From Candidatus Omnitrophota bacterium (GTDB lineage: Bacteria > Omnitrophota > Gorgyraeia > Gygaellales > Profunditerraquicolaceae), in contig JBAZKL010000003.1 in the NCBI GenBank assembly GCA_041650835.1, positions 163,682 through 227,681 on the forward strand: DNA of 64,000 bases, in the 5' to 3' direction. A model generated the notes under the pieces. That model did no database searches. It was not told the origin of the DNA and saw only the letters and a program-made list of their open reading frames with translations. A program made the position numbers and the translations under genes. Below, one piece after another: positions 14,683 to 56,127 of this stretch; position 1 is the stretch's first letter; the number at the start of each line of letters is the position of its first letter.

Positions 14683-15516
14683 CTATCCCGCAGCAAGCTT
14701 CAACAACTTGTTTTTGCCTTCTTTCGAAAGCTCTATGAATTTTATACCTAAATAATATCGTTTCCCTTCCTGTATATTACAATAAACGATCTCCCCCTTT
14801 GCCTGGACCGTTTCAGCTTCACTTATTATGCCGGAATTCAGTTTAAATTCTATAGATACTTCCAGGCCTTTAGGCAAAAACAAAAACACCTGCAAACCGA
14901 CAGCCATACCCGATTCCGATATATTGCAGGAAACCCCGTCAATAGGCGAGGCGCAACGCAGCCGTACCTCCTGCCCTTCAAGGGAAACGCGCACCGGAAC
15001 GGACAAGCTCCGGCGGCCGGATTCCCGATGGAAAGGGACCCCCCGTAAAGGATTCTTCTTGAACAGTAAATTTTCCAATTTAAAGAAATCCGCTTCTTGC
15101 CCGTAATATGAATCAAGCGCCTGCTGGATAGCGCGGGGTGAAGCGATCAAAGGCTCTACCGCCGATTCGCTTAAAGCAGACAGGCGGTCCAGGAAAGCCG
15201 TATTAAAAGGGTCTGAACAGGCAATATATAACGTATTCTTTACTTTAAATAACGGAATACACTGGTATTCGCGGCAGAATGATTCGCTTAATCCCCGGAA
15301 AACATCCGCGTTGATCGCATATTCCGTTAGTGAAACATAATTAAGGGCGCTTTCCTGGGCAAAAAGAATAAAAACATCTTCCTCGGTGAGATGGCCCCGC
15401 CTGACCAAAACACTCCACATGGATTTACCGAGCCTGAGAGCTTCTTGCTTGGCGGCAGAAAGCTGTTCTGAAGTAACCCGCTTGCTCCGGATAAGTTTTA
15501 ATTCAAACTCTTCCAT
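14683..15516 (-). CDS. T2SE_N (GspE N-terminal-like) domain fused to a PilZ domain; a putative c-di-GMP receptor
   Basis: The N-terminal ~140 aa resemble the GspE/PilB N-terminal domain (LGKSMWSVLVRRGHLTEEDV...CREYQCIPL...NTLYIACSDP). The C-terminus has PilZ motifs RESGRR (RxxxR) and NISESGM (D/NxSxxG). Confidence 0.7.
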   Translation of the reverse strand: MEEFELKLIRSKRVTSEQLSAAKQEALRLGKSMWSVLVRRGHLTEEDVFILFAQESALNYVSLTEYAINADVFRGLSESFCREYQCIPLFKVKNTLYIACSDPFNTAFLDRLSALSESAVEPLIASPRAIQQALDSYYGQEADFFKLENLLFKKNPLRGVPFHRESGRRSLSVPVRVSLEGQEVRLRCASPIDGVSCNISESGMAVGLQVFLFLPKGLEVSIEFKLNSGIISEAETVQAKGEIVYCNIQEGKRYYLGIKFIELSKEGKNKLLKLAAG

Positions 15517-15537: not shown

Positions 15538-16122
15538 TTACAAAGAAGCGCTTCCCTTGTCCTGCTGCGGATAATATTTTTTAATGAAATCGGCCAGGTT
15601 TTCCGAGACTTTTTGCTCTTCTATAATATACATGCCTCCTTTATTCAATTCTTCGGGAGATACCTGAGGGTACTTCTTCTGCATCGCTTCAAGCCATTCA
15701 GCCTGCTGACGGGCGATCTTGATCAATACCCGGTTGTCGCGGATCACGTCAAAATAATCGAGCGACTGCTTCACGATCATTTTTAATTCTTCGTTTTCCC
15801 AGGGCTTGGTAATAAACCGGTACACCTGCCCCTTATTGATAGCCTGAATAGCGGCTTCCAGGTCGGGATAACCGGTAAAAAGTATCCGGATCGAATCAGG
15901 GTAAAGCTGCTTGACCTTGACCAGGAAATCAACCCCCTGTCCGTCGGGCAGGCGATTATCGGAGATCACCAGGTCAACCCCGCCCAAACTCTTGAGCTTA
16001 TCAATGCCCTCCTGAACACAGCCGGCAGTATTGATATCCCTGTCATCGGCGCGCAGCAACCTGCTTAAGCTGCTTAAGATATTCTGTTCATCATCAACGA
16101 TCAATATAGTATGGTTAGGCAT
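15538..16122 (-). CDS. Response regulator with CheY-like receiver and a C-terminal domain of unknown function
   Basis: ILIVDDEQNIL...VISDNRLPDGQG...ITKPW shows the receiver Asp and KP motifs. The ~70-aa C-terminal extension has no obvious DNA-binding HTH. Confidence 0.8.
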   Translation of the reverse strand: MPNHTILIVDDEQNILSSLSRLLRADDRDINTAGCVQEGIDKLKSLGGVDLVISDNRLPDGQGVDFLVKVKQLYPDSIRILFTGYPDLEAAIQAINKGQVYRFITKPWENEELKMIVKQSLDYFDVIRDNRVLIKIARQQAEWLEAMQKKYPQVSPEELNKGGMYIIEEQKVSENLADFIKKYYPQQDKGSASL

Positions 16123-16474
16123 TCTTTTGCTCCTCTAAGTTTTTAACATAGCGGTCGATATACTCCTTCCCGGAAGAAGGAAAGACCTTGGTGAACATGA
16201 TCCCCATGCCCGCCGCTTCCGCGGTGCCTGCCGGCCGGCTCCACTGCACGACCCCTTCCGCGTGAATGATCTTTTTTTCTTTCCCGCCTTCATCAAACTC
16301 AAACATCACTTCAATCTTGGCGTTAGCCGGCTCAACCTTATCGGTTGAAACGAACATGCCTCCCGCGGAAATATCGCGGGTTTCGACATACTGCCAAAAA
16401 CTTCTTCCCCTGACCTCCACCCGCAACTTAACAAACGCCCTTTTATATTGCCTCTTTTCGTCAAAAGCTCCCAT
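16115..16474 (-). CDS. PilZ domain protein, c-di-GMP binding
   Basis: RQYKR (RxxxR) and DISAGGMFV (DxSxGG) are canonical PilZ motifs. 119 aa. Confidence 0.8.
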   Translation of the reverse strand: MGAFDEKRQYKRAFVKLRVEVRGRSFWQYVETRDISAGGMFVSTDKVEPANAKIEVMFEFDEGGKEKKIIHAEGVVQWSRPAGTAEAAGMGIMFTKVFPSSGKEYIDRYVKNLEEQKNA

Positions 16475-16784
16475 CGCTTCTCCTGCGTTTTTTGTTTACT
16501 ATTAACTTTTTAGCCGTGGCATCCTCAACCCCGGCTTGACCGGCCGTAAAACTAAAAGAATATTACTGCTGCTTCCGGCTAAGCGCGATATCGTACAAAC
16601 TAAGCGCTATACTACAAAACAGGCAGATCACCGCGTTAATTATCAAAGCCCCGGGAAGCGCTCCCCATTTGATCTCTTCAATCCCTAATAATTTAAACAT
16701 GCCGCCGATTACCATTGCAAACAAACGCTATTGCCAGGAACAGATCATCTCCTAAATTATAAACCTTATTTATCCCACCCCTCC

Positions 16785-18998: not shown

Positions 18999-20666
18999 TT
19001 ACACCTGTTCGGAGGAAACCCTTGAGATCTCTTCAATAGTCGTCATCCCTGCCAGGACTTTCGTTAACCCGTCTTCGCCTAAAAGCTTCATCCCGTTTTC
19101 CTGCGCCTTTTTACGCAAGGCAAGCGCTGAGGCCTGCTGCACGATCATCTCCCTCATTTCATCGCTGATCACCATCAATTCGAAGATACCGGCCCGGCCG
19201 CGGTAACCGGTGCCTTTACAATTATCGCAACCTTTTCCGTGGTATAACGTCACGTTGGGAATTTTCGTCAAACCCCATTTTTCTAAAATAACCTGTGACG
19301 GTTGATACGGCTCTTTACAAACATCGCAGATCTTGCGGACAAGCCTCTGAGCCATAACCCCGATCAAACAAGCGGAAATTAAAAACGGCTCCACGCCCAT
19401 ATTGACCAAGCGGGTCACCGCGGAAGGGGCATCATTCGTGTGGAGCGTTGAAAACACTAAATGTCCGGTAAGGGCCGCCTGCACGGCAATGACCGCGGTT
19501 TCCAGGTCCCTGATTTCCCCCACCATGATCACATCGGGGTCCTGGCGAAGGATAGCGCGCAAACCATTGGCAAAACTGATGCCGGCTTTTACGTTAACCT
19601 GGATCTGGCGGATCAGGCCTAAACGATATTCCACCGGGTCTTCGATCGTAATAATATGCCGGTCGATCGTATTGATCGTGGTAAGCGCAGAATAGAGCGT
19701 CGTGGTCTTTCCGCTTCCCGTCGGGCCGGTTGAAAGGATGATACCGTAAGGCTTGGTGATCAGGCCACGGTAACGCTTCAAATCCGTATCCGTGGCAAAT
19801 CCTAAGCGCTCAAGGCCGATCCGGACGGAGGCGGTATCCAAAAGCCTCATGACCAGGTTCTCACCATAAATAGTCGGGATGGTCGAAACGCGGAAGTCGA
19901 TGATCTTATCGTCTACCTTGACCTGAAAATGACCGTCCTGAGGGATCCTGCTTTCAGCGATATCCATCCCCGCCAACACCTTCAGGCGGGAAAGGATCGC
20001 CGGCTCCCATTCTTTAGGAGGAGAAGGGATCTCGTGCATAATACCGTCGATACGAAAGCGTATCCGCGTGATATCCTGTTCGGGCTCAATATGGATATCG
20101 GATGCCCTGTCATGGACTGCCTGGGAAATGATCAGGTCCACTAATTTAATGATGGAGGTGCCTTCCGAACGGGAATCCTTCGTCGGCGCGGCGGGCTCCT
20201 TGGTATTTAACCCGTCCAACAGGTTTTTCGTGATCTTTCGCTCAACATATAAACGCTGCTGCGCGTCGGCGATATCGGCAAGGGCAGCATAATAGATCTC
20301 GATAGGCATCCCGGTATGCATCTGTATCTGGTCAATAGCGTATAAATCGTTCGGGTCAGCCATGGCAACGCGCAGCGTATTATTATCGATCTTTACCGGT
20401 ATTGCCTGTGCCTGGCGCGCTAACGCCTCCGGCACCATTTTAATAAGCTCCTCGTTAAACTCGACATTTTCCAGGCTCAAATACTTGAACCCGAGAGACC
20501 GGGCGATAGTTTCATGCAAAAGAGGGCGGGAGACAATATTCATATCAACCAGGACCTTTTCCAGCGGGCGCTTTAATTTCCTCATTTCCTCACCCGCCTT
20601 GTCTATATCAGCCTGGTTAACCAATCCCGAACTTAATAATAGCCCTTCCAGATCTTTATCATTCAT
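18999..20666 (-). CDS. pilB: Type IV pilus assembly ATPase, GspE/PilB family; second paralog
   Basis: T2SE_N-like N-terminus, Walker A GPTGSGKTTTLYS and C-terminal CDVC...CDNC. The start is taken at ATG 20666 (MNDKDLEGLL), immediately after the stop of the TPR gene. The longer ORF (to 20765) would overlap the upstream gene by 98 nt. Confidence 0.9.
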   Translation of the reverse strand: MNDKDLEGLLLSSGLVNQADIDKAGEEMRKLKRPLEKVLVDMNIVSRPLLHETIARSLGFKYLSLENVEFNEELIKMVPEALARQAQAIPVKIDNNTLRVAMADPNDLYAIDQIQMHTGMPIEIYYAALADIADAQQRLYVERKITKNLLDGLNTKEPAAPTKDSRSEGTSIIKLVDLIISQAVHDRASDIHIEPEQDITRIRFRIDGIMHEIPSPPKEWEPAILSRLKVLAGMDIAESRIPQDGHFQVKVDDKIIDFRVSTIPTIYGENLVMRLLDTASVRIGLERLGFATDTDLKRYRGLITKPYGIILSTGPTGSGKTTTLYSALTTINTIDRHIITIEDPVEYRLGLIRQIQVNVKAGISFANGLRAILRQDPDVIMVGEIRDLETAVIAVQAALTGHLVFSTLHTNDAPSAVTRLVNMGVEPFLISACLIGVMAQRLVRKICDVCKEPYQPSQVILEKWGLTKIPNVTLYHGKGCDNCKGTGYRGRAGIFELMVISDEMREMIVQQASALALRKKAQENGMKLLGEDGLTKVLAGMTTIEEISRVSSEQV

Positions 20667-20667
20667 A

Positions 20668-21309
20668 TTAATCCCGCATGACTTGCAGCCGCGCGACCCA
20701 CGATTGCACCTCGTTTTTATCTTGCGCTTCAGGGGCGTATTTGAGGTATTTTTGATAATACTCAATCGCTTTTTTATTATCTTTTAACTGCTCTTCATAA
20801 ATGACACCCAGATTATAACAGGCGTCGGCCTGGTTCGGATTCAAGGAGAGCGACTTCAAGAACATATTGACTGCCAGGTTGAATTGCCTGGTTTTTAAAT
20901 ATTCTATCGCCAGGTTATAATATAAATCGCTGTTGCGGGGTTCGATCTCAACCGCTCGCAGGTAGAGCACAATAGCCTCTTTTGATTGTTCTTTTTTGGA
21001 TAAAAGCCATGCCCTGCGGGCTGACGACAAAGGGGCCTCTTCAGCGGCCAAAGAAGCCGGCGCAGGTAGCGCCCTACGCGCCGGGATCCCGCCCAAAAGC
21101 TCCTGCGCTTTTTTTAATTCTTCGTCGGCAAGGATATAATCGCCTTCCTGAAGGTATTTTTCTCCCGCAAGATAATACTCCTTTGCCTTTTTGAGCTTAT
21201 CGTCGGGAGAAAAAGACACCCCGGCGCGTTCCTGTCCGAAAACAAGCCCGGGGGCCAACAAAACCCCCAGAACGATCCCCCGGAACACGCTTCTCTTTGT
21301 TTTTTTCAC
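20668..21309 (-). CDS. TPR-repeat protein with signal peptide
   Basis: Signal peptide MKKTKRSVFRGIVLGVLLAPGLVFG. TPR-like repeats (AKEYYLAGEKYLQEGDY, LYYNLAIEYLKTRQF, ACYNLGVIYEEQLKDNKKAIEYYQKYLKYAP). Confidence 0.8.
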   Translation of the reverse strand: MKKTKRSVFRGIVLGVLLAPGLVFGQERAGVSFSPDDKLKKAKEYYLAGEKYLQEGDYILADEELKKAQELLGGIPARRALPAPASLAAEEAPLSSARRAWLLSKKEQSKEAIVLYLRAVEIEPRNSDLYYNLAIEYLKTRQFNLAVNMFLKSLSLNPNQADACYNLGVIYEEQLKDNKKAIEYYQKYLKYAPEAQDKNEVQSWVARLQVMRD

Positions 21310-29500: not shown

Positions 29501-30043
29501 CTAATAAGCGCCGACGATAGTTGTCAAACTCACATCGCTGGCTAAATTATTGCTGCGGGAAACGCTTACCTGGACACGCTTAAAGCAGCATTCGGAACAA
29601 CTGCTGCAATCCGTCGGTTCCACGCAGGCGGATACCTCACCGCAGCCCTGCCAGGTATTGCCGCTCAAACGCATATAATCAACCGTTACCGCGCGCGTGT
29701 ATCCTATAACAGGCGTAGTAACTGAAATATCCGCGCATCCGACGTAATCATCCACGTCGTTAAAAGTCCTTTTATCATTACTATTTTCCCCGCTCTCAGC
29801 TCCGAAGGAAGTGCTCGCGGTCCAGGGAGCGGCATCGCCGTGGTCAAAACTTTTTGATTTTATCTCTTCCATTAATTGCTGCGCGAAAAAAGCCGCGTCC
29901 GCTAAAGATTCCGAACGGACCGACCTCCAGGAAACATCCGACCACATGGTCATCAATACCGGCACGCTGAAACCCAGGACCACGATCACGACGATCAGCT
30001 CAATTAACGACATACCCTTATTACTCATTGTACCCTCACCCAT
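29501..30043 (-). CDS. Minor pilin with Cys-rich C-terminal domain
   Basis: MSNKG|[20 protein letters not shown] is a prepilin motif. The C-terminus contains CGEVSACVEPTDCSSCSECC. Confidence 0.75.
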   Translation of the reverse strand: MGEGTMSNKGMSLIELIVVIVVLGFSVPVLMTMWSDVSWRSVRSESLADAAFFAQQLMEEIKSKSFDHGDAAPWTASTSFGAESGENSNDKRTFNDVDDYVGCADISVTTPVIGYTRAVTVDYMRLSGNTWQGCGEVSACVEPTDCSSCSECCFKRVQVSVSRSNNLASDVSLTTIVGAY

Positions 30044-30678
30044 CCTGTATTCGGCGAAACATAAACGCTTAAATCCTCGTTTCGGCAGCTAAACCTTACT
30101 TGCCCGTCGGCAACTAACGGGTTCCCCGCGGCATCCTGGGGAGCGCCCTGCCAATCAAAACGCAGGACATTCGAACTCCCGAAACTCACCGCGGCGATCC
30201 TGATCCCTTTATACTGCGGGTCATTGATAAAATCCACCCTGAAATTATTGCGGCCAAAAGGAGACAGCGCGAAGCTGTTATCCAGCTTCTGGACATCATA
30301 CCGATTTACGGGATTATTATAAAATGTTATCTTATACGACTCGTGGCGGGAAACAGCCAGCTGCTGGACATAGCGGATGTCCGATACAGTTTTTTGCACC
30401 GCGCCTGCCAGCTTCATGGAATAAAAGCTGTCGATGCGGGGAATTGCCAGGCCGACCATGATCCCGATAATAGCCATTACCATGATCAGTTCAACCAGGC
30501 TCATGCCCCGGCCCAAGATCTGCTCCATTTTTCGCAGGTCATCTTCGGAATATTCCCGCCATTGATTAATACGGTTCCTGCGCGGTTTAGGAAAAATTCC
30601 TTTTTTTTCATAGCGAACCAGAGTTTGCCGGGATAGCCTCAATTTTTCCGCAATCTCTGAAGCGCGAAAAATACGCAT
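30025..30678 (-). CDS. AlpA/excisionase-like HTH domain fused in frame to a minor pilin
   Basis: Residues 1-~50 (EIAEKLRLSRQTLVRYEKKGIFPKPRRNRINQWREYSEDDL) are paralogous to the 63-aa protein at 14303..14494. They are followed by ...MEQILGRG|MSLVELIMVMAIIGIMVGLAIP, which has G-1, Glu+5 and a hydrophobic helix. A strong Shine-Dalgarno (CAGGAG) precedes the first ATG, whereas the internal Met codons lack good ribosome-binding sites. Confidence 0.7.
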   Translation of the reverse strand: MRIFRASEIAEKLRLSRQTLVRYEKKGIFPKPRRNRINQWREYSEDDLRKMEQILGRGMSLVELIMVMAIIGIMVGLAIPRIDSFYSMKLAGAVQKTVSDIRYVQQLAVSRHESYKITFYNNPVNRYDVQKLDNSFALSPFGRNNFRVDFINDPQYKGIRIAAVSFGSSNVLRFDWQGAPQDAAGNPLVADGQVRFSCRNEDLSVYVSPNTGWVRVQ

Positions 30679-44639: not shown

Positions 44640-47543
44640 CTAGAACGCGTGGCTCAAACCTATCCAAAAATGCGTATCCTCTTTCGGATCATTGATAGGC
44701 CGGGCGATATCAAGGCGCAGCACCGCCTTTTCCAGAAATCCGGCAATATCAAAATGCAGGCGCAAGCCTAACCCCGCGTCCTTCTTAAAATGAGCGCCTT
44801 CAAAATCGTTATGCCAGGCCTTGGCGATATCAAAAAATCCGACGCCCTGAATTTTATTCAGGCAAAAAACATTGTCCAGGAAATACATTTTCATATCTTT
44901 GGTCAAAGGAAAACGGTACTCCGCCGTTCCTAAAACCATACGCGCCCCCTGGATCGTTTCCCTGCCATACCCCCGCAATCCATCCGCGCCTCCCAAATCA
45001 AAAAGGTCCTTATCTCCCGGGCCTCCCCATCCAACCTTGAGGCGTGTCGCTATTTTCTGTGAAAGCTTCGGCACCAGCAGGCGGTAATTATCCAATTCTA
45101 AACTCGTGCGCCAAAAAGATTCTTTTCCTCCCAGGAAATGTCCGGCAAATTCCTGCTGAGGGGTGAATTTCCAGCCATAATCCGGATCTGCATACGGGCC
45201 GTACCGGCACAAAGAAGCGGCCATGCCGACGATCGATTCATCCGTTTTTCGATAAACGGTATTGCGGGCGTCTTCCGCGCCATTAACAGCGGCCTGTTGA
45301 TCAAGTTTTTGATCCCTTAAAAGATACAAAGTAACATGATCATTAAGGTCAAAAATGCCGTACCGCGCCGGCCATAGTTCTCGCCTGATATAAAGCTTGC
45401 CGCCGGACACATCTTTACGGCGCGTACGGTAATTGCGGTTAAAAACCTCAAGCCCCACGGACACCTGTTTATTGAAAAGGTGGGGCAACTCATAGCCGGC
45501 CGTATATTCCGACTCTTTATCATTAAAATCGTAGAGAGAAGAAAATTTCACCAGCCCATCATAGGGCTTTGCCGCCGAGGCAGCCGCCCCCATCCGCGAC
45601 CCCCGAAGATCAGGGCCGAAAACCACATTATAAGATCCGGCAGGCATCAGGGAAGGGATCTCATAGGCAAAGAAATACCAGGGGACCGGCTTAAGAAAAA
45701 TATGCCGCGGCCAGGAATTGTTTACCCGGTCCACATCCAGGATGATCTTATTATCCGGATCGACCACGACTTGAGAAACCGCCTTGCCGGCATCAAGAGG
45801 TAAAGCTATATCCCGCCCGCGCCCGTCCCACTGAAAAACACTTTGCGTTTGGTCGCGATAAACGACCCTTGCTTCAACCGGCATTTCGATCGAACCGCGG
45901 TTTTCTAAAACAAACGCCCCTTCACCCGACGGCTTCACGGCATAATCGCAGGTTTTCTTGGTCTTCAGCCAATTATTAAAGAATCCGGTCAAGTCTTCGC
46001 CCGATTCCTCATTACAGATCCTCACAAGATCACTCAATGCGAAATTCTTGAACCTGAATTCTTCGGTATAACGCTTCATGATCCGCTCGAACACCCGGCT
46101 GCCGACGAAAGCCTCGAGCATTTCCAAAACAGCGGCGCCCTTGCCGTAGGTCAAGGCGAATATCGATGAGGGCTCCTGAAAGCTCGAAAGGTCGCTTACG
46201 ACCGGCCCATCGAGAGAATTTTTCGCCAGGTACAGGTAACGGGCGACCGTTGAGCCGTGAAATGTAAAATCAGGAATTAGCCACCGTAGCGCCGGCGGCA
46301 AAGTCAGAACGGAGGCGTTCTTCCCGTAAACATGCTCCAAATAACGTAATATCCAATATGAATTCATGCCCTCATCAAGGAACATCTCCCTGTATTCATC
46401 GGAACCGATGATATTATAAAACCATTGATGGCCGGTCTCATGCGATATGAGGAAATTAAAATAGCGCTCCAAAAACCCGGGGACCCGATAAACGCGCGTA
46501 TCAATAAATATAAAACTGGAAGACTGGCACCCGCCGTATCCTAAATAACTCGGGACAATGGAAAAATTCTTATACGGATACGGCCCGAAGCGTTCGGCGT
46601 AAAACCGCATTAATGACGCGGCGTAATCGGCGGCGGAAACCGCTCTTTTTTCGTCGCCTTTAAGATAATACGAATAGATCGTCGCATCGCCATACGCAAG
46701 TTTATGCACTAAAAATGACCTGCTGAGCCCCAATGAAAAGTCCCTCACCGGGAATTCCGTCTCCATAACAAGGGTTTTTGTCCCGTCAGGGTTGTCTGTT
46801 TGGCCTTTTACTAAAGCCGTTGAAGCCACGATCTCATCCCGCGGCAGAGTAAAGGTGACCTTATAATAAGCGGCTTCACTGAAATAAGGCTGGTGATAAA
46901 TATAAAAAGGATAATTATGCCACCCAGATTTATCCACAACGCTTAAGATCGGATACCAGCGGGCAAGGCTGGTGATCTCCCGGTGCCAGCCGAACCTGCC
47001 GTATGCGTGAGGTATCTCGACCTTGAAATCCAAGGTAACCTCTTGAGTATCACCGGGTTTAAGCGGTGAATCAAGCTCAACCTTAAGGATCGTCCGGTCA
47101 TCGCCTTCCACGCGGTAAGCAAGCGCCGAACCCTTCGCGGATACTTTTTCTATTTTTAGATCTCCCCCCTGAAATCCTTCAGGGAAAGGATTCATTTTGA
47201 AATAACCGGCATACCGGTACATGAAACCGATCTCTTTTTTTGTGTACGTGCGGTGAGGATAGATATGAAAATAAAGGGCATCAAGGGGAATGTCGGTGTT
47301 ATTGGTAAACGCGACTTTCTGGCTGGCCGCGATAGTATGATTTTTAGTATCCAACTCGGCGGTAATATCATAGCGGGGGCATTCGGCGGCGTAAGAAAGT
47401 AAGAAATTGAAAACAAAAAGGCAAAAGAAAAACGCAAGAAACAATACAAACCTTACGCTCTTATTCATATCAAAAACTCCTGATTTTCCGGGTGCCCCAG
47501 TCGCCAGTACACCAGTTACTATAACTATGGACCATAGTCTCAA
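44640..47543 (-). CDS. Fusion protein: N-terminal M1-type (aminopeptidase N-like) zinc metallopeptidase domain plus C-terminal Omp85/BamA-type outer-membrane beta-barrel
   Basis: The N-terminal hydrophobic region carries alternative starts (M1 or MNKSVRF). The gluzincin motif is HETGHQWFYNIIGSDEYREMFLDEGMNSYW (HExxH...E). The C-terminal ~350 aa have amphipathic beta-strand periodicity, the Omp85 signature FDLGGADGLRGYG (LGG...LRGY) and a terminal aromatic (...WIGLSHAF). Confidence 0.7.
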   Translation of the reverse strand: MRLWSIVIVTGVLATGAPGKSGVFDMNKSVRFVLFLAFFFCLFVFNFLLSYAAECPRYDITAELDTKNHTIAASQKVAFTNNTDIPLDALYFHIYPHRTYTKKEIGFMYRYAGYFKMNPFPEGFQGGDLKIEKVSAKGSALAYRVEGDDRTILKVELDSPLKPGDTQEVTLDFKVEIPHAYGRFGWHREITSLARWYPILSVVDKSGWHNYPFYIYHQPYFSEAAYYKVTFTLPRDEIVASTALVKGQTDNPDGTKTLVMETEFPVRDFSLGLSRSFLVHKLAYGDATIYSYYLKGDEKRAVSAADYAASLMRFYAERFGPYPYKNFSIVPSYLGYGGCQSSSFIFIDTRVYRVPGFLERYFNFLISHETGHQWFYNIIGSDEYREMFLDEGMNSYWILRYLEHVYGKNASVLTLPPALRWLIPDFTFHGSTVARYLYLAKNSLDGPVVSDLSSFQEPSSIFALTYGKGAAVLEMLEAFVGSRVFERIMKRYTEEFRFKNFALSDLVRICNEESGEDLTGFFNNWLKTKKTCDYAVKPSGEGAFVLENRGSIEMPVEARVVYRDQTQSVFQWDGRGRDIALPLDAGKAVSQVVVDPDNKIILDVDRVNNSWPRHIFLKPVPWYFFAYEIPSLMPAGSYNVVFGPDLRGSRMGAAASAAKPYDGLVKFSSLYDFNDKESEYTAGYELPHLFNKQVSVGLEVFNRNYRTRRKDVSGGKLYIRRELWPARYGIFDLNDHVTLYLLRDQKLDQQAAVNGAEDARNTVYRKTDESIVGMAASLCRYGPYADPDYGWKFTPQQEFAGHFLGGKESFWRTSLELDNYRLLVPKLSQKIATRLKVGWGGPGDKDLFDLGGADGLRGYGRETIQGARMVLGTAEYRFPLTKDMKMYFLDNVFCLNKIQGVGFFDIAKAWHNDFEGAHFKKDAGLGLRLHFDIAGFLEKAVLRLDIARPINDPKEDTHFWIGLSHAF

Positions 47544-47798: not shown

Positions 47799-48449
47799 CT
47801 ATTTTGCAACCTGTGACTTTCCCAAGGGACAACACTCACACCGGGGCTTCCTCTTCAAGCAAAACTCCTTGCCTGCCCGCACCAAAAGAGCATGAAATTC
47901 ATTATAAAGCGGCGCATCGGGTTTAAGCCTGCTCATACATAAAAACTGTACGGTATGGTAACCGTCATTTTCCGCTATCAGCTTATGCCGGAGGAATATC
48001 CTTTTTGTGTACGCGTCGACGACAAAAACAGGTTTTTGGAACGCGTAAAGCAAGATCGCATCCGCGGTTTCCGGCCCGACCCCATTGACCAAAAGCAACT
48101 CCTCCCGCAAAAGAGGGGAGGCGACAACCGACATTTTTTCCAAATCCCCCCCATAACGGGAAAACAGGTATTCCAAGAAATTCTTCAAACGGTGAGCCTT
48201 AATATTATAATATCCCGCGGGAACAATTATTGCCGCTAATTTTTTCTCAGGCAAACGGTAGAGCTTCCCGGGAGACAATACCTTCTTTACTTTTAAATTA
48301 TCAAGCGCCCGTTCGACATTTACCCAACTTGTATTTTGCGTCAGGATCGCCCCGACGATAACTTCCCAGGGATCATCTGCCGGCCACCAGGCTTGCGGCC
48401 CGAAATGCTTGTATAACTTGTTATAAATTGAACGAAGAGTCGAAGTCAT
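47799..48449 (-). CDS. nth: Endonuclease III-family DNA glycosylase (HhH-GPD with [4Fe-4S] cluster)
   Basis: HhH-GPD LLLVNGVGPETADAILLYAF with the catalytic Asp context (VVDAY). The C-terminus has CLKRKPRCECCPLGKSQ (Cx6CxxCx5C-like). Confidence 0.85.
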   Translation of the reverse strand: MTSTLRSIYNKLYKHFGPQAWWPADDPWEVIVGAILTQNTSWVNVERALDNLKVKKVLSPGKLYRLPEKKLAAIIVPAGYYNIKAHRLKNFLEYLFSRYGGDLEKMSVVASPLLREELLLVNGVGPETADAILLYAFQKPVFVVDAYTKRIFLRHKLIAENDGYHTVQFLCMSRLKPDAPLYNEFHALLVRAGKEFCLKRKPRCECCPLGKSQVAK

Positions 48450-48532: not shown

Positions 48533-50485
48533 CTAATTCTCAAGTTCCAAAGGATTGTAATTATAATACGCGAACAACGTATATACCGTTGCCGAAACAG
48601 CGCCTGTCTTTCTTCCCGCCGGAGTAGTCCATCCATGGCCGGTATCAACGGATGCGGCGGAAGCATACGGCAGGCATCCTGCCCCCTGGCCGGAGGGAGA
48701 AGCGCTGGAAATGATCAACGTGCACAGATCAACCATATATTCGTTTGCTTTTTGATCATAGACCTTTGCCTTGCCGAGCATATCTTTTTTCTTATAATAA
48801 TCCGCCATTATTTTGAATGACAGTATCATTTGAGCGGTCCATTCGGTCGAGATCACTCCTCCCCGGGAGAGATGCCGCTGCGGGGCAAAATCAAAGCCTT
48901 TGATCTTGATCGTTTCTCCTGACGGGCCTATCGAAGGGACCTCAACCACGCAATTTTCTTCGGCAAATTCAATTATTTTATCGGGCTGCATCGCGTTTTC
49001 CGCCAATTTTTCAGGCCCCAGCGCCGCGATCGCCCATGCGTACGTATCGGTAGCGATCGTTGAATCCCCCTTACCGCGGATGATCGGGATATCGACTTTA
49101 TCATAAATGTGCCCGAGCAACCAACCAAACACCTTGTCCCGCGCGTCCGCGTAATGCTGTTTCTTGGTCATTGTATACAGCATATTAAAGAACGCGTAAG
49201 CGTCCAGGTTATGCTCGGTAGAATACCAACTGATATTAGGGCCGCCGCGGATACCTCCTTGCCCGTCCTGTCCCTGTAAAACGATCATGACCTGAGCGAT
49301 CTCTTCGGCTATCTTCATATACCGGGTATCGGACGTTTTCTTCGTATAGTGGAGTATCGCGATCCCCAGCCAGATATTAGGGCCGCTGTGCACGATATAT
49401 TCCGCGGGGCTGCCGTCTTTAGCATCATAGGCATTGACAAAAAGCCCTTCCCTTTTCTTGGCTTTGTGCGCATAAAACTCTAATGTCTTCTGAGCACGCT
49501 CATAATCGGAAAAATTCGTGAAAGCCTGGATTACCAGGGACTGGTCATAGGTAAACGCCCAGCCGTCGACATTCGCGTCGCCCTCAAAGCTCATGACCAG
49601 GCCTGTCCGGGGATTTTGATGCAAGCTGAGCCATTGATACATTTTATTAAAATTTTCTTTCTGTAACGTCGCTTTTTTCTCATCCAGGCGCAGTAATTCT
49701 TCCGTCACCGAAGTCTCACGGTGCTGCAGGTCGATCAACTTCTCCTGGAGCGGGGCCTTTTGCTGCCTCAACTGCTCGATCAATTTTTTAAGCTCCTCTA
49801 CTTTCTTGATAGACTTGGCCTCTTCCAATTTAACGCCGTCTTCAAGAGAATTCTTTTCATCCTCCACGGTCTTAATACGCACCTGTAACGCTTCGATCTT
49901 AAGCTGCAGGTCCTCTTTATCCTTATTGATGTTCGTGATCTTTTGCTTGGCGATGATCGATTCCTGCAAGATATTAACCAACTGGCTGATCAAAGTCTTG
50001 TTGCCCTGGATAAGCTTGGCATTAACATAGCTGTTAACAACGAGCGCCGCGGAAAAAACCAGGATTATCGAATAAACTACCGGAACGAATAATTTTTTCA
50101 TCCAGACATACCGCATGAGCCGGGTATTCGCGTTGCGATCGATAGAATCATAATTTAAACCAATAACGTACTTATTGGCGTTGACCGCGGCGCCTTTTAC
50201 CCAGGAAACGCTTGCCCGGGCAAAAACCGGATGCCTCCCTAAAGGGCTTTCGATCTCTAAGATGACCCGGCTCGATTGGCTCTTTATGGTCTGGATCAAA
50301 TCGGGAGAAAGATTATTAACGCGCAGGCACAATCCGCCCTTTCCTATATTATTCGTAAAACCCTGCAGCCAACCGGAGAGGAACGCCTGCTCATCGGCGG
50401 CAAGCACCAGCCTAAACTGGACAGGAAAGACCGAATCAAGCCTCACATATTTTCTACGGTTGAGGGCTTCGTGATCTTTTTCCAT
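48533..50485 (-). CDS. PilZ-domain membrane protein with coiled coil and C-terminal (alpha/alpha)6 glycoside-hydrolase-like domain
   Basis: N-terminal PilZ motifs RRKYVR and NIGKGG. A TM segment (LFVPVVYSIILVFSAALVV) is followed by ~150 aa of coiled coil. The C-terminal ~330 aa (WAFTYDQSLVIQAF...GPNIWLGIAILHY...TEHNLDAYAFF...DTYAWAIAAL) have helical-hairpin repeat character, as in GH8 or epimerase-like toroids. Confidence 0.55.
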   Translation of the reverse strand: MEKDHEALNRRKYVRLDSVFPVQFRLVLAADEQAFLSGWLQGFTNNIGKGGLCLRVNNLSPDLIQTIKSQSSRVILEIESPLGRHPVFARASVSWVKGAAVNANKYVIGLNYDSIDRNANTRLMRYVWMKKLFVPVVYSIILVFSAALVVNSYVNAKLIQGNKTLISQLVNILQESIIAKQKITNINKDKEDLQLKIEALQVRIKTVEDEKNSLEDGVKLEEAKSIKKVEELKKLIEQLRQQKAPLQEKLIDLQHRETSVTEELLRLDEKKATLQKENFNKMYQWLSLHQNPRTGLVMSFEGDANVDGWAFTYDQSLVIQAFTNFSDYERAQKTLEFYAHKAKKREGLFVNAYDAKDGSPAEYIVHSGPNIWLGIAILHYTKKTSDTRYMKIAEEIAQVMIVLQGQDGQGGIRGGPNISWYSTEHNLDAYAFFNMLYTMTKKQHYADARDKVFGWLLGHIYDKVDIPIIRGKGDSTIATDTYAWAIAALGPEKLAENAMQPDKIIEFAEENCVVEVPSIGPSGETIKIKGFDFAPQRHLSRGGVISTEWTAQMILSFKIMADYYKKKDMLGKAKVYDQKANEYMVDLCTLIISSASPSGQGAGCLPYASAASVDTGHGWTTPAGRKTGAVSATVYTLFAYYNYNPLELEN

Positions 50486-50488
50486 AAA

Positions 50489-52897
50489 TTATTTTTTCCT
50501 CTCTACGACCACTTTCTGTTTAATTTTCTGGGCAAGATTCTCATATACCTTCTTAAAATCGGCATATTCTTCCTGCGGAATGAGCGTTTTTTTTAATTCA
50601 ATCGACTGTTTAAAAGATATCCTCTTATTTTTATAGGTATACCCCGCGCTAAAACGAAACCAGCTATTATCCTCCGCGATATTACCGGGGAGGAACTTCA
50701 CGTTAAAATCAGGAGGCATCTGAATTTCCGTCACCACCTCTTTAGTATTCAGGAAACCGAAATCAAGCGGATACCTGCGGCGACTTTGAGCGACTAAGGA
50801 GAGGTCCAAATATGCCAATTGAGGCAGGATACGCAGAGCACCGGCGATGGTCGCGTACTCGCTGCCGCTAAAGGCATATTCAAGCAATAAAGGTTTATTC
50901 GGATCATCGGCATTCTTAATATCATATTTACCTAAACGCGCCCCCACGGATATTTCCTGGATCCTGGCTTCCAGGTGCTGGCGGATCAATTCCGGCGGCG
51001 TATATAAAACCCAATACCGCTGCATCTGGTTATAGACCCCGGAAACCGCGACCGTTTTCTCTCCCGTAATACGGTCATCTCCTTGCACCGTAAGCGATAA
51101 ACCCTGGCTGATCTGATTATGCCCGGCCTCATAGAGCGGAGTCGTAAGGACTTCAAACCCTTGTTCTTTGCATAATAAAACCGTCCGCGCCTGGTCATCC
51201 TGGGGCAAATCGCCAAACGCGCATGTTTCCGCGGTGGGATCGACAAAAACTTTTTTTCCTTCCCATACCACCGCCGCGATAGCATGATTAAAAAGTATCG
51301 AAGGGAAATCCTCCCGCGCGTTATAAGCATCTTTTGTCGCGATAAGCACCGGATAGGCCTCAATGCCGGCCTGCCGCAGCATCGTCACTAACAAAACCGC
51401 CTTATCCTTGCAGTCGCCGTATTTATTCTGAAAGATATCCGCTGCTTTATGCGGTTCATAACCGGCCTGCCCGTATTCAACCGCAACATAACGGATCTTC
51501 TGCGCGGCAAAGCCGCACAACGCGCGGATCTTCTCCTCATCGGATACGGCAGAAGCGGTTAATTCTTTTACCTTGTTCCTGATCGAATCATCGGCCGTGA
51601 TCTTGTCCCGGGCGAGCGGCCACCACCAATCGTAAATCCCTTTCCACGACTCAAAGGTGGAGAACAACAGCGATGGATTGATCTCTGAAGCAGGCGGCAT
51701 ATCGGACTCGGGTATCACCTGCGGGATGTCCCTGAATTGCCATGAATAGACGGCTGAGCCTTTTTCTTCCCGGACAGAAGGATCTAAAGAAACTCCAAAA
51801 TCATTATATTTTTCGTTGATCTTTTTAATATTGAGTACTGTATCCTTCGGCACGGTAATGGAAAAATTCGCCCGGATCACCGGCTGGGAAGTTTGCAGGG
51901 GATACGGGAAAGCGAAATCTTTTTTGTTCACCAGCTGGTTACGCACGATCTTTACTTTGTATTCGATGATCGCTCCTTCCGTTATTTCCGGGAAAGAAAT
52001 TATAAAGATCCGCGCGTTGCTGTAAAGCGGGAAATTAAGGTATTTCGAGACATCGCGCATATGGCGGCTGCCGACATCAACGAGAGTACCGTCGGGCTTA
52101 ATGGTCCGCGCGTATTCCACCTCCAGCTTTTCATATGTTGAATCATACTCGATGTGCGCCTCTGAAAATTCATCCTTGCCCCGTTCATTTAAGATCTTCA
52201 CCAGATAATGCTCAGAGGAAACCTGGGTATTTTCCGCAGATACTACGACCGCTTCATCGGCAAGCAGGATCAACGCTCCTGCCTGAGGATATTTCTCCGA
52301 CGCAGGCGCGCCAAGCAGGATCGCATTGATCTCGGGGCTGACATCTTTAATGTGCAGTCCTTCCACCTGTTTCTCTATAAGCCGCATTCGCTCCCGCGCA
52401 AAGAAGGCAAAGCTTCCCGGGACGGGCATCAGTACACCGGGTATCTTTTTATACGCTTCAAGGGCGCTGTCAAAAAGATTGAGCTTTTCACAGGTCAAAC
52501 CGCGGTAATATAAATACTCGGCATCATCCTTCAACTCATTCTGATCAAAGACCGCCAAGGCATCGGTATAGCTGCCCGCCTTATAGTATGAGATCGCCAG
52601 CCACTTCCGCGCCCCGGGGGCATCCACGCGCTTAAATTCTTCCGCCGCCTCGGCGTATTTCCCCTGACGGTAATACAACTCTCCCAATTCAAAGCCTATT
52701 CTCCGGGGATCGGCCCCCTGAGAGAGCAATCGCTTATACAGGACAACCGCTTTCCGGTAATCAGCTTCGGAAACCTGCGCGTAAATACGGGCCTGCTCCA
52801 ACTCCGATTTCTGAGGGGTACAGCCGCATAAAGCTGAAAACACAAGAACAAATACAAAAGCGGATATAGATCTATTATTAATAATTTGATTATTCAT
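50489..52897 (-). CDS. Large lipoprotein with N-terminal TPR repeats and central transglutaminase-like cysteine-protease core (DUF3857-like architecture)
   Basis: Lipobox LCGC. TPR-like YRKAVVLYKRL...GELYYRQGKYAEAAEEFKRV. The transglutaminase-core motif KYGDCKDKAVLLVTMLRQAGIEAYPVL carries the catalytic Cys. 802 aa. Confidence 0.7.
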   Translation of the reverse strand: MNNQIINNRSISAFVFVLVFSALCGCTPQKSELEQARIYAQVSEADYRKAVVLYKRLLSQGADPRRIGFELGELYYRQGKYAEAAEEFKRVDAPGARKWLAISYYKAGSYTDALAVFDQNELKDDAEYLYYRGLTCEKLNLFDSALEAYKKIPGVLMPVPGSFAFFARERMRLIEKQVEGLHIKDVSPEINAILLGAPASEKYPQAGALILLADEAVVVSAENTQVSSEHYLVKILNERGKDEFSEAHIEYDSTYEKLEVEYARTIKPDGTLVDVGSRHMRDVSKYLNFPLYSNARIFIISFPEITEGAIIEYKVKIVRNQLVNKKDFAFPYPLQTSQPVIRANFSITVPKDTVLNIKKINEKYNDFGVSLDPSVREEKGSAVYSWQFRDIPQVIPESDMPPASEINPSLLFSTFESWKGIYDWWWPLARDKITADDSIRNKVKELTASAVSDEEKIRALCGFAAQKIRYVAVEYGQAGYEPHKAADIFQNKYGDCKDKAVLLVTMLRQAGIEAYPVLIATKDAYNAREDFPSILFNHAIAAVVWEGKKVFVDPTAETCAFGDLPQDDQARTVLLCKEQGFEVLTTPLYEAGHNQISQGLSLTVQGDDRITGEKTVAVSGVYNQMQRYWVLYTPPELIRQHLEARIQEISVGARLGKYDIKNADDPNKPLLLEYAFSGSEYATIAGALRILPQLAYLDLSLVAQSRRRYPLDFGFLNTKEVVTEIQMPPDFNVKFLPGNIAEDNSWFRFSAGYTYKNKRISFKQSIELKKTLIPQEEYADFKKVYENLAQKIKQKVVVERKK

Positions 52898-53937: not shown

Positions 53938-55295
53938 GTAATTGCCTCAAACATAGCCCGGGCCTTGACCAGCGTTTCCCGGTATTCTTTTTCAGGGTCT
54001 GAATCGGCGACGATCCCGCCTCCCACGCCGAAATACACCATATCAGCTTTTTTAACTATCGTGCGGATCAAAATATTAAAATCCATCTCGCCTGAAAAGC
54101 TGAAGTATCCCAAACTCCCCGTATAGAGCGAACGCCCGAACGGCTCTAATTCATCGATGATCTCCATAGCGCGGATCTTCGGGCACCCCGTGACCGATCC
54201 GCCGGGAAAACACGCCCGCATCAGATCAAATCCGTCCTTATCTCGCCGCAGGCGGCCCTCGACCGTCGCGGTAGTCTGAAAAACAGTAGCATACTCTTCC
54301 AGGGCGCGCAGCGTCTTTACCCCCACCGAACCGTATTCACAAACCCTGCCGAGATCGTTCCTTTCAAGATCGACGATCATCACTAATTCCGCCCGCTCCT
54401 TATGGCTGGAGAGTAATTCATTTCTCAACTTTGCGTCAAGCGCCCTGTTCTTTGAACGAGGGCGCGTGCCCTTCATCGGAGTAGTCTCAACTCTTCCCTT
54501 GCGCAGGCTTAAAAAGCGTTCCGGCGAAGAGCTTAAAACCTGGAAGCTGCCTGCGTCAAAATAAGCGCTGAAGCTTGACGGGCTGATACGCCGCAAACGC
54601 TCATAAATATCAAAAGATTCGTCGCTGCAATGGCCGCAAAAACGCTGAGATAAATTAACCTGATAAATATCCCCCCGCTTGATATATGCCTTGGCTTTCC
54701 TGACTGCCCGGTGATAGGCTTGCCTGCTGAAGTTTGATCTTAATCCTCCTGAAGCGCATATTAAAGGCTTTACCCGCGGCAGGCGGCGACTTTCTACCCG
54801 CGAGAGTATCGCGGCTGTTTTCTTGATATTATGCCCGCACAATGCTTTTGCCGCGTGATACTTCTTTTCGGGAAACCCCGCGGAGAAAATATAAAGTTTA
54901 CGCGCCGGGTTATCAATGATCACGACAGTATTATAAAAAGCGAAGTAACTCTGCGGGACCGACAAAGATCCTTTTTTCCTCCCGCGGTGAGATGCTTCCA
55001 TCTCTACCCCAAGGTCATAGGTAAGGTATCCCAAAGCGCCTCCCAGGAACGGGATATTGTTCCCGGGGACCGATAAACGGTAATCATTAAGCCTCCTGCG
55101 CAACGCGGAAAACGGATCCTTACTTGAGCTCTTTAAAATATAGAACGGATCCATACCGATAAATGAATACCGGCCGGTGGACCCCGCAGAAAGGCTGCTG
55201 TCGAGAAAAAAACAGTTTTTTTCATCCTTAAACGCGGCAAAAACGCTCAACGGGTCAACGCGTAATTTATATGATTTCAAGATGTAATATGCCAT
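53934..55295 (-). CDS. pabB: Aminodeoxychorismate synthase component I (chorismate-binding enzyme family)
   Basis: Chorismate-binding C-terminal domain motifs (LSQRF...ERLRRISPSSFSAYF, MKGTRPR, ERAELVMIVDLERNDL, PGGSVTGCPKIRAMEII, GYFSFSGEMDFNILIRT). No glutamine amidotransferase domain is fused. Confidence 0.85.
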   Translation of the reverse strand: MAYYILKSYKLRVDPLSVFAAFKDEKNCFFLDSSLSAGSTGRYSFIGMDPFYILKSSSKDPFSALRRRLNDYRLSVPGNNIPFLGGALGYLTYDLGVEMEASHRGRKKGSLSVPQSYFAFYNTVVIIDNPARKLYIFSAGFPEKKYHAAKALCGHNIKKTAAILSRVESRRLPRVKPLICASGGLRSNFSRQAYHRAVRKAKAYIKRGDIYQVNLSQRFCGHCSDESFDIYERLRRISPSSFSAYFDAGSFQVLSSSPERFLSLRKGRVETTPMKGTRPRSKNRALDAKLRNELLSSHKERAELVMIVDLERNDLGRVCEYGSVGVKTLRALEEYATVFQTTATVEGRLRRDKDGFDLMRACFPGGSVTGCPKIRAMEIIDELEPFGRSLYTGSLGYFSFSGEMDFNILIRTIVKKADMVYFGVGGGIVADSDPEKEYRETLVKARAMFEAIT

Positions 55296-56127
55296 CGATT
55301 CTAAACGTCCGTTCTTCGTTGCGTAAACAACAGAAACCGACCAGGTATAAGCGGCGCTTATCCTGTTTTATGGAGCGGGGGATCACTTCCCGTTCGGAGA
55401 TCTCCGCGGCGGAAGTGGAAAAATACCGGATCTTTAATTTAACGCCCAGGTCGATAGCCTCCCGGATCTCGGCCACCTTTTGATTATTGCTATCCTCAAG
55501 AAAATCGGCCTGGACGCCGAAAAGGCTGACAAAATCATGGAAATCGGTTATTCCTTTCTGCTCCATGGCAAGGCGCAGCTTCAAAAATACTCCCCACGTC
55601 ATTTCCACGTCGGCCAGCGCGCGGTGTTTTTGCGGCGCGGTAATGCCTAATTTCCGGGAAATAAACCACAAGGCGTAACGCTCCTGCCCCGGGAGCAGCT
55701 TGCGTGCCATCGAAAGTATATCGACAACGACCATTTCTTCGGATAATGCCATCCCCGCCAAGCCTAATTCAACCTTCAAGAATTCAAGGTCGAACGGCGC
55801 GTTATAAGAGCACAGGCAGCTGCCCGAAATAAAATCAAGGAATCGGGGGATGACCTCCCGCATGCGAGGGCACCCGAGCAATTCTTCCCGGGTGATCTGA
55901 TTGACCTGGAACGCGCCAGGCGAAATAGCCATTTCCGGATCAACCAGCATCTGGAAAGTCGCGATCCTTCTATCCGCCTGAAAGCGCAATCCCGCGATCT
56001 CAACTATCCGGTCGCCGGAGCCAGGATCCAAGCCGGTAGTCTCAGTATCAAAAATAGTAAACTCGACTTCATCCAGTTTTTTACGCAGCATCGGACCGCT
56101 CATTTCATGAAAAAGTTTTCTTAACAA
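55267..56127 (-). CDS. DEDDh 3'-5' exonuclease (DnaQ / Pol III epsilon-like) with C-terminal extension
   Basis: Exo I FTIFDTETTGLDP, Exo II ...YNAPFDLEFL, Exo III HRALADVEMT. The ~90-aa C-terminal domain is of unknown function. Confidence 0.8.
   Translation of the reverse strand: MLRKLFHEMSGPMLRKKLDEVEFTIFDTETTGLDPGSGDRIVEIAGLRFQADRRIATFQMLVDPEMAISPGAFQVNQITREELLGCPRMREVIPRFLDFISGSCLCSYNAPFDLEFLKVELGLAGMALSEEMVVVDILSMARKLLPGQERYALWFISRKLGITAPQKHRALADVEMTWGVFLKLRLAMEQKGITDFHDFVSLFGVQADFLEDSNNQKVAEIREAIDLGVKLKIRYFSTSAAEISEREVIPRSIKQDKRRLYLVGFCCLRNEERTFRIDGILHLEII

Follow-up and report, generated by a model that had tools for sequence, protein, structure and literature searches.

The stretch of DNA analysed here (the window) comprises 64,000 nt of contig JBAZKL010000003.1 from a Candidatus Omnitrophota bacterium, and all of its large open reading frames (ORFs) lie on the minus strand. 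One of them encodes a protein of 650 amino acids (aa) in which a PilZ domain, carrying a predicted binding site for cyclic di-GMP (c-di-GMP), is joined through a single transmembrane helix to a periplasmic part that ends in an (alpha/alpha)6 toroid; we refer to this protein as the PilZ fusion. Its ORF begins with an ATG codon 3 nt beyond the TAA stop codon of the upstream gene. A chance ORF is excluded by 975 homologous database proteins, recovered in a word-indexed search, and by relatives in 410 genomes, found on scanning a single genome for each GTDB species.

From its N terminus, the protein consists of a cytoplasmic PilZ domain, one transmembrane helix, a helical spacer and an (alpha/alpha)6 domain (Table 1). 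This order had been given correctly in the initial annotation of the sequence, and Pfam matches, hydropathy and a full-length AlphaFold2 (AF2) model (mean predicted local distance difference test score, pLDDT, of 82.3) bear it out; the two PilZ motifs quoted there, RRKYVR and NIGKGG, were both found on translation of the ORF. The segment at aa 132-152 is the sole strongly hydrophobic one (19-residue Kyte-Doolittle maximum of 2.65). Because five Lys or Arg residues flank it on the N-terminal side and two on the C-terminal side, we assigned the helix an N-in/C-out orientation, with the PilZ domain in the cytoplasm and the remainder in the periplasm. No match to Pfam or NCBIfam was obtained over aa 280-650 of the window protein; the precomputed annotation of one orthologue includes PF27605.

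Table 1. Positions of the PilZ fusion, its parts and motifs, and its two adjacent genes in the 64,000-nt window.
Feature	Position	Strand	Description and basis
Whole gene of the PilZ fusion	48533..50485	-	650 aa; PilZ, transmembrane helix, probable helical hairpin and (alpha/alpha)6 domain
PilZ domain, cytoplasmic, canonical	50105..50461	-	aa 9-127; Pfam PF07238
Predicted c-di-GMP-binding motif RxxxR, R11-K-Y-V-R15	50441..50455	-	translation and family alignment
Variant of the [D/N]hSxxG motif, N46-I-G48-K-G-G51, Ser replaced by Gly	50333..50350	-	aa 46-51; translation and family statistics
Single transmembrane helix, N-in/C-out	50030..50092	-	aa 132-152; Kyte-Doolittle hydropathy and flanking Lys/Arg
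Periplasmic helix, arm 1	49838..50029	-	aa 153-216; AF2, heptads and covariation with arm 2
Helix break, putative hairpin tip, indel-prone	49823..49837	-	aa 217-221; AF2 and alignment
Periplasmic helix, arm 2	49622..49822	-	aa 222-288; AF2 and covariation
Periplasmic (alpha/alpha)6 six-hairpin domain	48536..49621	-	aa 289-650; AF2, Foldseek and weak GH76 matches of orthologues
G368-P369-N370-I371-W372, equivalent of GH76 D-D-N-x-W	49370..49384	-	profile alignment to GH76 structures
TPR, DUF3857, transglutaminase-core and DUF3858 lipoprotein	50489..52897	-	802 aa; Pfam; directly upstream
HhH-GPD (endonuclease III-like) gene	47799..48449	-	Pfam and NCBIfam; downstream neighbour

The Pfam model PF07238 matched aa 9-127 with 26.8 bits (gathering score 22.5), and PilZ was likewise matched in 28 of 32 orthologues, with a best E-value of 1.5e-10. 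In the AF2 model, strands at aa 14-28, 40-47, 51-57, 72-78, 87-98 and 105-115 form a PilZ beta-barrel (aa 14-115), after which the C-terminal helix starts at aa 117, with pLDDT values of 77-89 in the region. The refined definition of the PilZ binding site combines RxxxR with [D/N]hSxxG (bioRxiv 10.1101/814665). An alignment of 232 distinct family sequences shows R11 and R15 wherever there is no gap, Asp or Asn at position 46 in 97%, and, again at all non-gap positions, a hydrophobic residue at position 47 and G51. Position 48 is Ser in 113 sequences, Gly in 98, Ala in 8 and Cys in 5, and the window protein carries Gly at this Ser position while fitting the other five of the six [D/N]hSxxG positions. 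The initial annotation had cautioned that key Arg or Ser residues might be missing; as it turns out, the Arg pair of RxxxR is intact in all aligned sequences and the Ser of the second motif is replaced. The other four key motif residues are kept in 95% of the Gly48 lineages versus 97% of the Ser48 lineages, and since both groups keep the rest of the site alike, the site is under selection in both. The affinities of the Ser and Gly forms for c-di-GMP may nevertheless differ. When the family profile was aligned to MotI/YpfA of B. subtilis (5vx6), a proven c-di-GMP receptor, both motifs fell in register (RRQYVR with RRKYVR and NISAGG with NIGKGG). Galperin & Chou note that c-di-GMP binding is invariably kept by PilZ domains within fusion proteins. 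Omnitrophota also possess GGDEF proteins, as reported in the West-Roberts preprint (bioRxiv 10.1101/2023.11.21.568195) and as seen in an orthologous locus (L001), where a REC-GGDEF gene lies ~5 kb from the orthologue of the PilZ fusion. Judging from these motifs, the PilZ domain of the fusion likely binds c-di-GMP.

Between the membrane and the toroid, aa 153-288 are helical with a heptad register, the fraction of Leu, Ile, Val, Met and Phe being 0.57 at a/d positions versus 0.30 overall. In the AF2 model, one unbroken helix (aa 117-216) takes in the C-terminal helix of PilZ, the transmembrane segment and a first periplasmic arm; it breaks at aa 217-221, and the next helix extends over aa 222-288, giving periplasmic arms of 64 and 67 residues. 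Indels of 4-17 residues among orthologues are restricted to the break region. Covariation was assessed by mean-field direct coupling analysis (DCA) of 209 sequences (effective number 164). The mean coupling peaked in an antidiagonal band at i+j of 438-443 with a z-score of ~5, while control diagonals of constant j-i reached at most 2.2, although these z-scores treat pairs as independent and indels may create coupling near the hairpin tip. This antiparallel band held 29 of the 86 pairs in the top 2% versus 21.5% expected (p = 0.006), and its pairs span the entire stalk (for example 154-287, 172-265, 187-253, 200-239 and 214-227). With moderate confidence, the spacer is probably an antiparallel alpha-hairpin, ~9-10 nm long at 0.15 nm per helical residue, as in periplasmic adaptor proteins, the likeness to which is limited to this hairpin. 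Such a fold-back would place the toroid close to the membrane and the transmembrane helix again. The helix break, the equal arms and the antiparallel covariation disfavour an extended parallel coiled-coil stalk; the coiled coil of ~150 aa in the initial annotation was close to the measured ~135 aa and right in being helical with heptads, but is probably folded back on itself rather than extended.

The C-terminal domain (aa 280-650), modelled by AF2 on the basis of 32 orthologues, formed six helical hairpins (predicted TM-score 0.86), and its Foldseek matches in the PDB were (alpha/alpha)6 toroids only. With the domain alone, the best matches were alpha-mannanases of glycoside hydrolase (GH) family 76 (6u4z and 4c1s, E-values of 5e-7 to 8e-7, TM-score ~0.6), followed by MmpH, glucose and cellobiose 2-epimerases, GH126 and GH88. 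With the full-length model, in which the toroid was better resolved than in the domain-alone model, AGE-type epimerases (8h1l, E = 2.4e-9), GH126, MmpH (TM-score 0.71 relative to the target), GH76 and GH8 (5gy3, E = 1e-7; the cellulose-associated CMCax 1wzz, E = 1.4e-6) were effectively tied. The predicted six-hairpin (alpha/alpha)6 fold can be regarded as settled by these models: a TPR-like solenoid is ruled out, each fold match being a toroid, and the hydrolase-like domain of the initial annotation is a genuine member of the glycosidase/epimerase clan of toroids. Its suggested resemblance to GH8, BcsZ or epimerases also recurred among the fold matches (5gy3, 1wzz and the 2-epimerases). For GH8 this likeness holds at the level of the fold, but the nearest relative by sequence is GH76; a GH8 Pfam match was found in neither the window protein nor the 32 orthologues, and GH8/BcsZ membership was rejected on this ground.

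GH76 was the sole curated family detected by sequence. PF03663 matched 15 of 32 orthologues at E-values of 0.01 or below (best 2.2e-7), and two of these proteins (P0094 and P0015) reached 31 bits (cutoff 25.9) over positions 26-218 of 366 in the hidden Markov model (HMM) alone, about half of its length. The window protein itself had no PF03663 match at an E-value of 0.1 or below, and sequence and profile searches of the PDB gave marginal GH76 matches only. The GH76 alpha-1,6-mannanases (BT3792, 4c1s; BT2949; BcGH76/Aman6) and MmpH share the toroid fold of the PilZ fusion (Foldseek E-values of 5e-7 to 1e-8). Also kept is the N-x-W just behind the catalytic pair of GH76: in a profile of diverse stand-alone homologues, the GH76 sequence D-N-[IV]-W pairs with P369-N370-[IL]-W372. 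The catalytic pair of GH76 consists of consecutive carboxylates, Asp143-Glu144 in BT2949 and Asp124-Asp125 in BcGH76, and a conserved Trp (Trp147 in BT2949) stands four residues past the first of them (PMC4321491). This spacing fixes the register, such that the pair corresponds to G368-P369 in the PilZ fusion, as it does across the whole superfamily. By this alignment the GH76 catalytic dyad is absent, and together with the sub-threshold score of the window protein its loss led us to reject membership in GH76. Since G368 is conserved superfamily-wide (95% of 92 diverse domains), the domain represents a separate family of the six-hairpin clan and not a decayed GH76 enzyme. AGE-superfamily 2-epimerases and isomerases (glucose and cellobiose 2-epimerases, YihS) gave equal or better full-length fold matches. 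AGE enzymes are soluble, cytoplasmic and act on free sugars, whereas the toroid of the PilZ fusion is extracytoplasmic and tethered to the membrane.

In the same 92 domains, a set of acidic and aromatic residues is strongly conserved: Y313 (98%), D314 (93%), N370 (84%), W372 (86%), E424 (96%), D428 (87%), D474 (88%), D480 (96%), D532 (87%), E548 (98%), Y607 (98%) and W619 (86%). H425, which is invariant within the PilZ-fused subfamily, is kept in less than 70% of the wider superfamily. D314, G368-W372, E424, D480 and E548 stand at the N-terminal starts of the first helices of hairpins (H312, H367, H423, H478 and H547) in the AF2 model, and these positions at the N-terminal ends of inner helices place the conserved residues all on one face of the toroid. 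Six-hairpin enzymes carry their active-site funnel on that face, and the conserved acidic and aromatic residues of the PilZ fusion would form its predicted active-site face. With the GH76 pair gone, catalysis by the toroid would depend solely on the alternative conserved carboxylates D314, E424, D480 and E548. As a separate observation, C512 is near-invariant and C604 invariant in the PilZ-fused subfamily (codons at about 48673-48675 and 48949-48951), and the two could form a periplasmic disulfide.

The PilZ fusion has the distribution of a core, vertically inherited Omnitrophota protein. Nearly all of the best 120 homologues are ~650 aa long, with 63-94% identity in the C-domain, and the named sources among them are Candidatus Omnitrophota. 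Similarly, the best 80 of the 410 genomes are essentially all metagenome-assembled or single-amplified genomes of Omnitrophota, along with a few differently labelled bins. The toroid is the best-conserved part, with cross-species identities of 62-69% versus 40-56% for PilZ and ~50-58% for the neighbouring lipoprotein. Beyond the fusion, an exhaustive search of representatives at 50% identity gave 843 clusters at E-values of 1e-3 or below; the best 150 of these comprised 58 PilZ fusions, 32 stand-alone domains and 23 proteins of 1,000-7,886 aa. Several stand-alone toroid homologues carry signal peptides or lipoboxes, and these exported forms provide independent support for an extracytoplasmic toroid. 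Weak GlcNAc_2-epim and C5-epim_C Pfam matches were seen on some distant homologues, and for ten distant toroid homologues no source gave a functional name. Weak N-terminal MgtE_N and FliG-like matches of distant homologues of 871-967 aa (P0182 and P0184) hint at one more fusion of the toroid, to a signalling or motor-related part.

The giant proteins among these relatives match the 'Archaeovorin' proteins of Omnitrophota, which have a 4C1S-like fold and are encoded near pilZ genes and GGDEF domains (bioRxiv 10.1101/2023.11.21.568195). Paralogues of the toroid domain occur in the proteins of 1,000-7,886 aa, but Archaeovorins are extracellular multidomain giants with a proposed role in attack on the cell walls of prey (bioRxiv 10.1101/2023.11.21.568195), whereas the PilZ fusion has 650 aa, was present once per locus fetched, is joined to PilZ and is encoded in a housekeeping block. 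The fusion of PilZ, transmembrane helix and toroid was not described in the Omnitrophota or PilZ literature that we searched, and we found no paper in the searchable literature that contained both PilZ and GH76.

We propose that the PilZ fusion is an inner-membrane-anchored c-di-GMP receptor-effector that acts on an envelope glycan, a reading to which we assign a probability of about one half. The cytoplasmic PilZ domain would bind c-di-GMP, and binding would shift the orientation or oligomeric state of the rigid unit formed by PilZ, its C-terminal helix and the transmembrane segment. This shift would in turn change how active or accessible the periplasmic toroid is, or which partners it contacts ('inside-out' signalling). 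The toroid would be an active carbohydrate-processing domain, whether hydrolase, lyase or epimerase, using D314, E424, D480 and E548. Because the toroid is the best-conserved part of the protein, its substrate would be a conserved endogenous glycan of the envelope or periplasm and not the variable polysaccharides of prey. The directly c-di-GMP-controlled glycan enzyme put forward in the initial annotation is upheld as far as the fusion of a putative receptor to a toroid goes; the GH76 catalytic pair is replaced by G368-P369, such that hydrolase chemistry cannot be assumed.

Several points weigh against this proposal. The Ser of [D/N]hSxxG touches c-di-GMP in MapZ, and this contacting residue is Gly48 in the window protein. 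The models show about equal fold likeness (TM-scores of 0.55-0.7) to GH76/MmpH, AGE epimerases, GH126 and GH8, that is, to hydrolases, epimerases and isomerases, and the fold alone cannot pick between a hydrolase, a lyase and an epimerase. The hairpin that would bring the toroid back to the membrane is subject to the limits of the DCA z-scores given above, and transmission of a signal over a single transmembrane helix is something we infer by analogy. Finally, neither the window nor the orthologous loci inspected contain linked glycan-synthesis genes.

Alternatively, the toroid could be a non-catalytic, glycan- or protein-binding pseudo-enzyme and the protein a scaffold or sensor, which we consider unlikely. 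It might tether an envelope structure in a c-di-GMP-dependent manner, or it might report a periplasmic ligand inwards, with PilZ serving as an adaptor to MshEN-type pilus ATPases and the like. A binding function would be compatible with the replacement of the Asp-Asp pair of GH76 by Gly-Pro while W372 (corresponding to Trp147) and probably the Asp equivalent to Asp249 are retained, with the protein-protein contacts of the C-terminal helix through which PilZ domains commonly work, and with the richness of the window in c-di-GMP-binding pilus components. However, D314, E424, D480 and E548 are kept at 93-98% in a very diverse superfamily that includes secreted stand-alone proteins, and carboxylate conservation of this kind is a pattern expected of catalysis more than of a purely binding function. 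Characterised members of the six-hairpin clan are almost all enzymes, and the superfamily-wide G368 again points to a distinct family rather than a decayed GH76.

The genes around the PilZ fusion form a syntenic housekeeping block. Upstream lie the transglutaminase-like gene, an aminotransferase IV gene, a gene for a chorismate-binding enzyme, an RNase_T-WYL gene and an LPG_synthase_C gene; downstream are HhH-GPD, an M1 peptidase-Omp85 fusion, an M20 peptidase, a PAC2 gene and a HAD hydrolase. The HhH-GPD gene, which resembles endonuclease III and 3-methyladenine glycosylase, comes next downstream in 61 of the 67 Omnitrophota loci that could be tested, in many of them a few bases away (83 nt in the window); this adjacency probably reflects conserved operon order and not a functional link. 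The transglutaminase-like lipoprotein has a signal peptide, an LCGC lipobox-like motif and an intact GDC496 transglutaminase-core motif. In 46 of the 61 orthologous loci that could be tested, its gene immediately precedes that of the PilZ fusion, at a gap of 2-6 nt in the loci inspected, and the two are probably co-transcribed. Obligate pairing is weakened by the 15 of 61 loci where it is absent at this position; there HypD, RNase_T-WYL or aminotransferase genes are directly upstream, and the backbone genes abut the PilZ gene.

This pair of genes raises the alternative of a switch like LapD/LapG, in which the periplasmic part of the PilZ fusion would sequester or release the adjacent transglutaminase-like cysteine protease lipoprotein, which in turn would process a surface protein. 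The parallel is that a putative transmembrane c-di-GMP receptor with a periplasmic output is encoded, in most of the testable loci, beside a predicted periplasmic cysteine protease-like protein of the transglutaminase superfamily. LapG is a periplasmic cysteine protease under the control of such a receptor and belongs to the transglutaminase-like cysteine proteinase family, and the short intergenic gaps, the export signals and the catalytic-Cys motif of the neighbour all fit. We nonetheless hold this model to be very improbable. LapD senses c-di-GMP through a degenerate GGDEF-EAL module and has a HAMP domain, whereas the window protein has PilZ as its only Pfam domain, lacks HAMP and contains no LapD domain of any kind; the periplasmic domain and the protease family differ as well, the neighbour being Pfam Transglut_core with DUF3857/DUF3858 and not of the LapG family. 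About a quarter of the species are without the partner at this position while their backbone is the same, the adjacency is part of a general synteny in which a DNA glycosylase gene, just as conserved, follows downstream, and the conserved active site resembling that of sugar enzymes would be left unexplained.

An architectural parallel is Alg44, the alginate co-polymerase of Pseudomonas. It likewise has an N-terminal canonical PilZ domain whose C-terminal helix leads to the membrane anchor, one transmembrane helix and a periplasmic C-terminal part, and cytoplasmic c-di-GMP is likewise presumed to act on a periplasmic process. On this basis, the PilZ fusion could combine the receptor and the periplasmic glycanase of a synthase-dependent secretion system, Alg44 plus AlgL or the PilZ of BcsA plus BcsZ in one chain, with its hairpin docking to an outer-membrane export component. 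Besides the layout, the adaptor-like hairpin supported by covariation and the GH8 BcsZ-type structures among the fold matches argue for such a role, and a periplasmic hydrolase or lyase is part of the exopolysaccharide systems known to be controlled by c-di-GMP. Alg44, however, has a periplasmic HlyD/membrane fusion protein-like domain, while the PilZ fusion has no HlyD-family match in Pfam or NCBIfam and instead carries the helical hairpin and the (alpha/alpha)6 toroid. No synthase, polymerase, export porin or HlyD-type barrel/lipoyl domain was found in the protein, its neighbourhood or the orthologous loci inspected, and no exopolysaccharide synthase, export or glycosyltransferase operon surrounds the gene in the window or the orthologous loci. 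Synthase-dependent systems are normally operonic, and the very high phylum-wide conservation of the toroid fits a housekeeping substrate better. We therefore see little prospect for this model. The analogy to cellulose and alginate systems drawn in the initial annotation is sound as architecture, without an exopolysaccharide operon around the gene; in place of the neighbouring exopolysaccharide genes for which it proposed a search, there is the conserved housekeeping block.

Other features of the window concern c-di-GMP, the envelope or the same block. As the initial annotation had stated, two other PilZ proteins are encoded in the pilus locus and no GGDEF or EAL domain occurs in any ORF of the window. 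HD-GYP is absent from its ORFs as well, so that no cyclase or phosphodiesterase gene was found within its 64 kb. One of the two is an MshEN-PilZ protein (14683-15516); the other is a stand-alone PilZ protein of 126 aa (~16118-16495, 44 bits, RQYKR...DISAGG) whose gene adjoins those of a response regulator and a histidine kinase. The two pilus or type II secretion system (T2SS)-like loci (4148-5824, 14683-15516, 16118-16495 and 18999-20765, all on the minus strand) are dense in c-di-GMP receptor modules, and both of their T2SSE ATPases have N-terminal MshEN domains. Flanked by genes for a T2SSE ATPase and a secretin, 5842-9507 (minus strand) encodes a protein of 1221 aa with a signal peptide, a possible lipobox (VTGC) and at least three near-identical repeats of ~50 aa (QRQERLAKEAEEKQLAADKEAQEKQKQLAEEQAGVKKAMRL); no Pfam match was found for it. 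It consists of 20% Glu, 15% Lys, 14% Gln and 13% Ala, a composition that accounts for the extreme AT skew (-0.50) of the region. At the edge of the pseudopilin cluster, 30025-30678 (minus strand) encodes 217 aa in which an N-terminal MerR-type helix-turn-helix (aa 5-61) is joined by a weakly matched prepilin N-methylation motif (aa 57-78); if real, the pairing is odd.

In the housekeeping block itself, the M1-Omp85 fusion (44640-47543, minus strand, 967 aa) joins an M1-family aminopeptidase (aa 306-525) to a C-terminal Omp85-type barrel (aa 673-961), an unusual way of displaying or anchoring a peptidase; of the 83 loci fetched, 13 have it downstream of the PilZ gene, with identities of 49-88%. 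The RNase_T exonuclease with a C-terminal WYL domain (55267-56127, minus strand) is retained within this syntenic block in many loci of Omnitrophota; where the genes in between are missing, it stands immediately next to the PilZ gene.

PilZ domains fused to outputs and c-di-GMP acting on periplasmic processes are both known. The known PilZ control of glycan synthesis operates from the cytoplasm (BcsA) or by way of a periplasmic adaptor (Alg44), and the one well-understood inside-out c-di-GMP switch is LapD, which uses a different sensor. A protein in which PilZ is linked through a transmembrane helix to a periplasmic domain resembling sugar enzymes would be a compact and testable form of second-messenger control over extracytoplasmic glycan chemistry. 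In the strongest version of our proposal, which we put forward tentatively and hold to be doubtful, the PilZ fusion would be the first of its kind, a PilZ-based 'inside-out' switch in which c-di-GMP directly gates a periplasmic enzyme of an unrecognised six-hairpin family with its own catalytic apparatus. If this were true, a near-universal core protein of Omnitrophota would tie second-messenger signalling to envelope remodelling in ultra-small, host-associated bacteria, and the giant proteins with which they attack prey would have drawn on the same family of enzymes.

The analysis also defines an uncharacterised six-hairpin family of 843 clusters that has its own set of carboxylates, secreted forms and giants of up to 7,886 aa. 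Omnitrophota have no cultured members and their cell biology has been little explored; the PilZ fusion stands among their best-conserved envelope proteins. For inside-out control by PilZ, it is a candidate that is cleanly defined, abundant and amenable to experiment.

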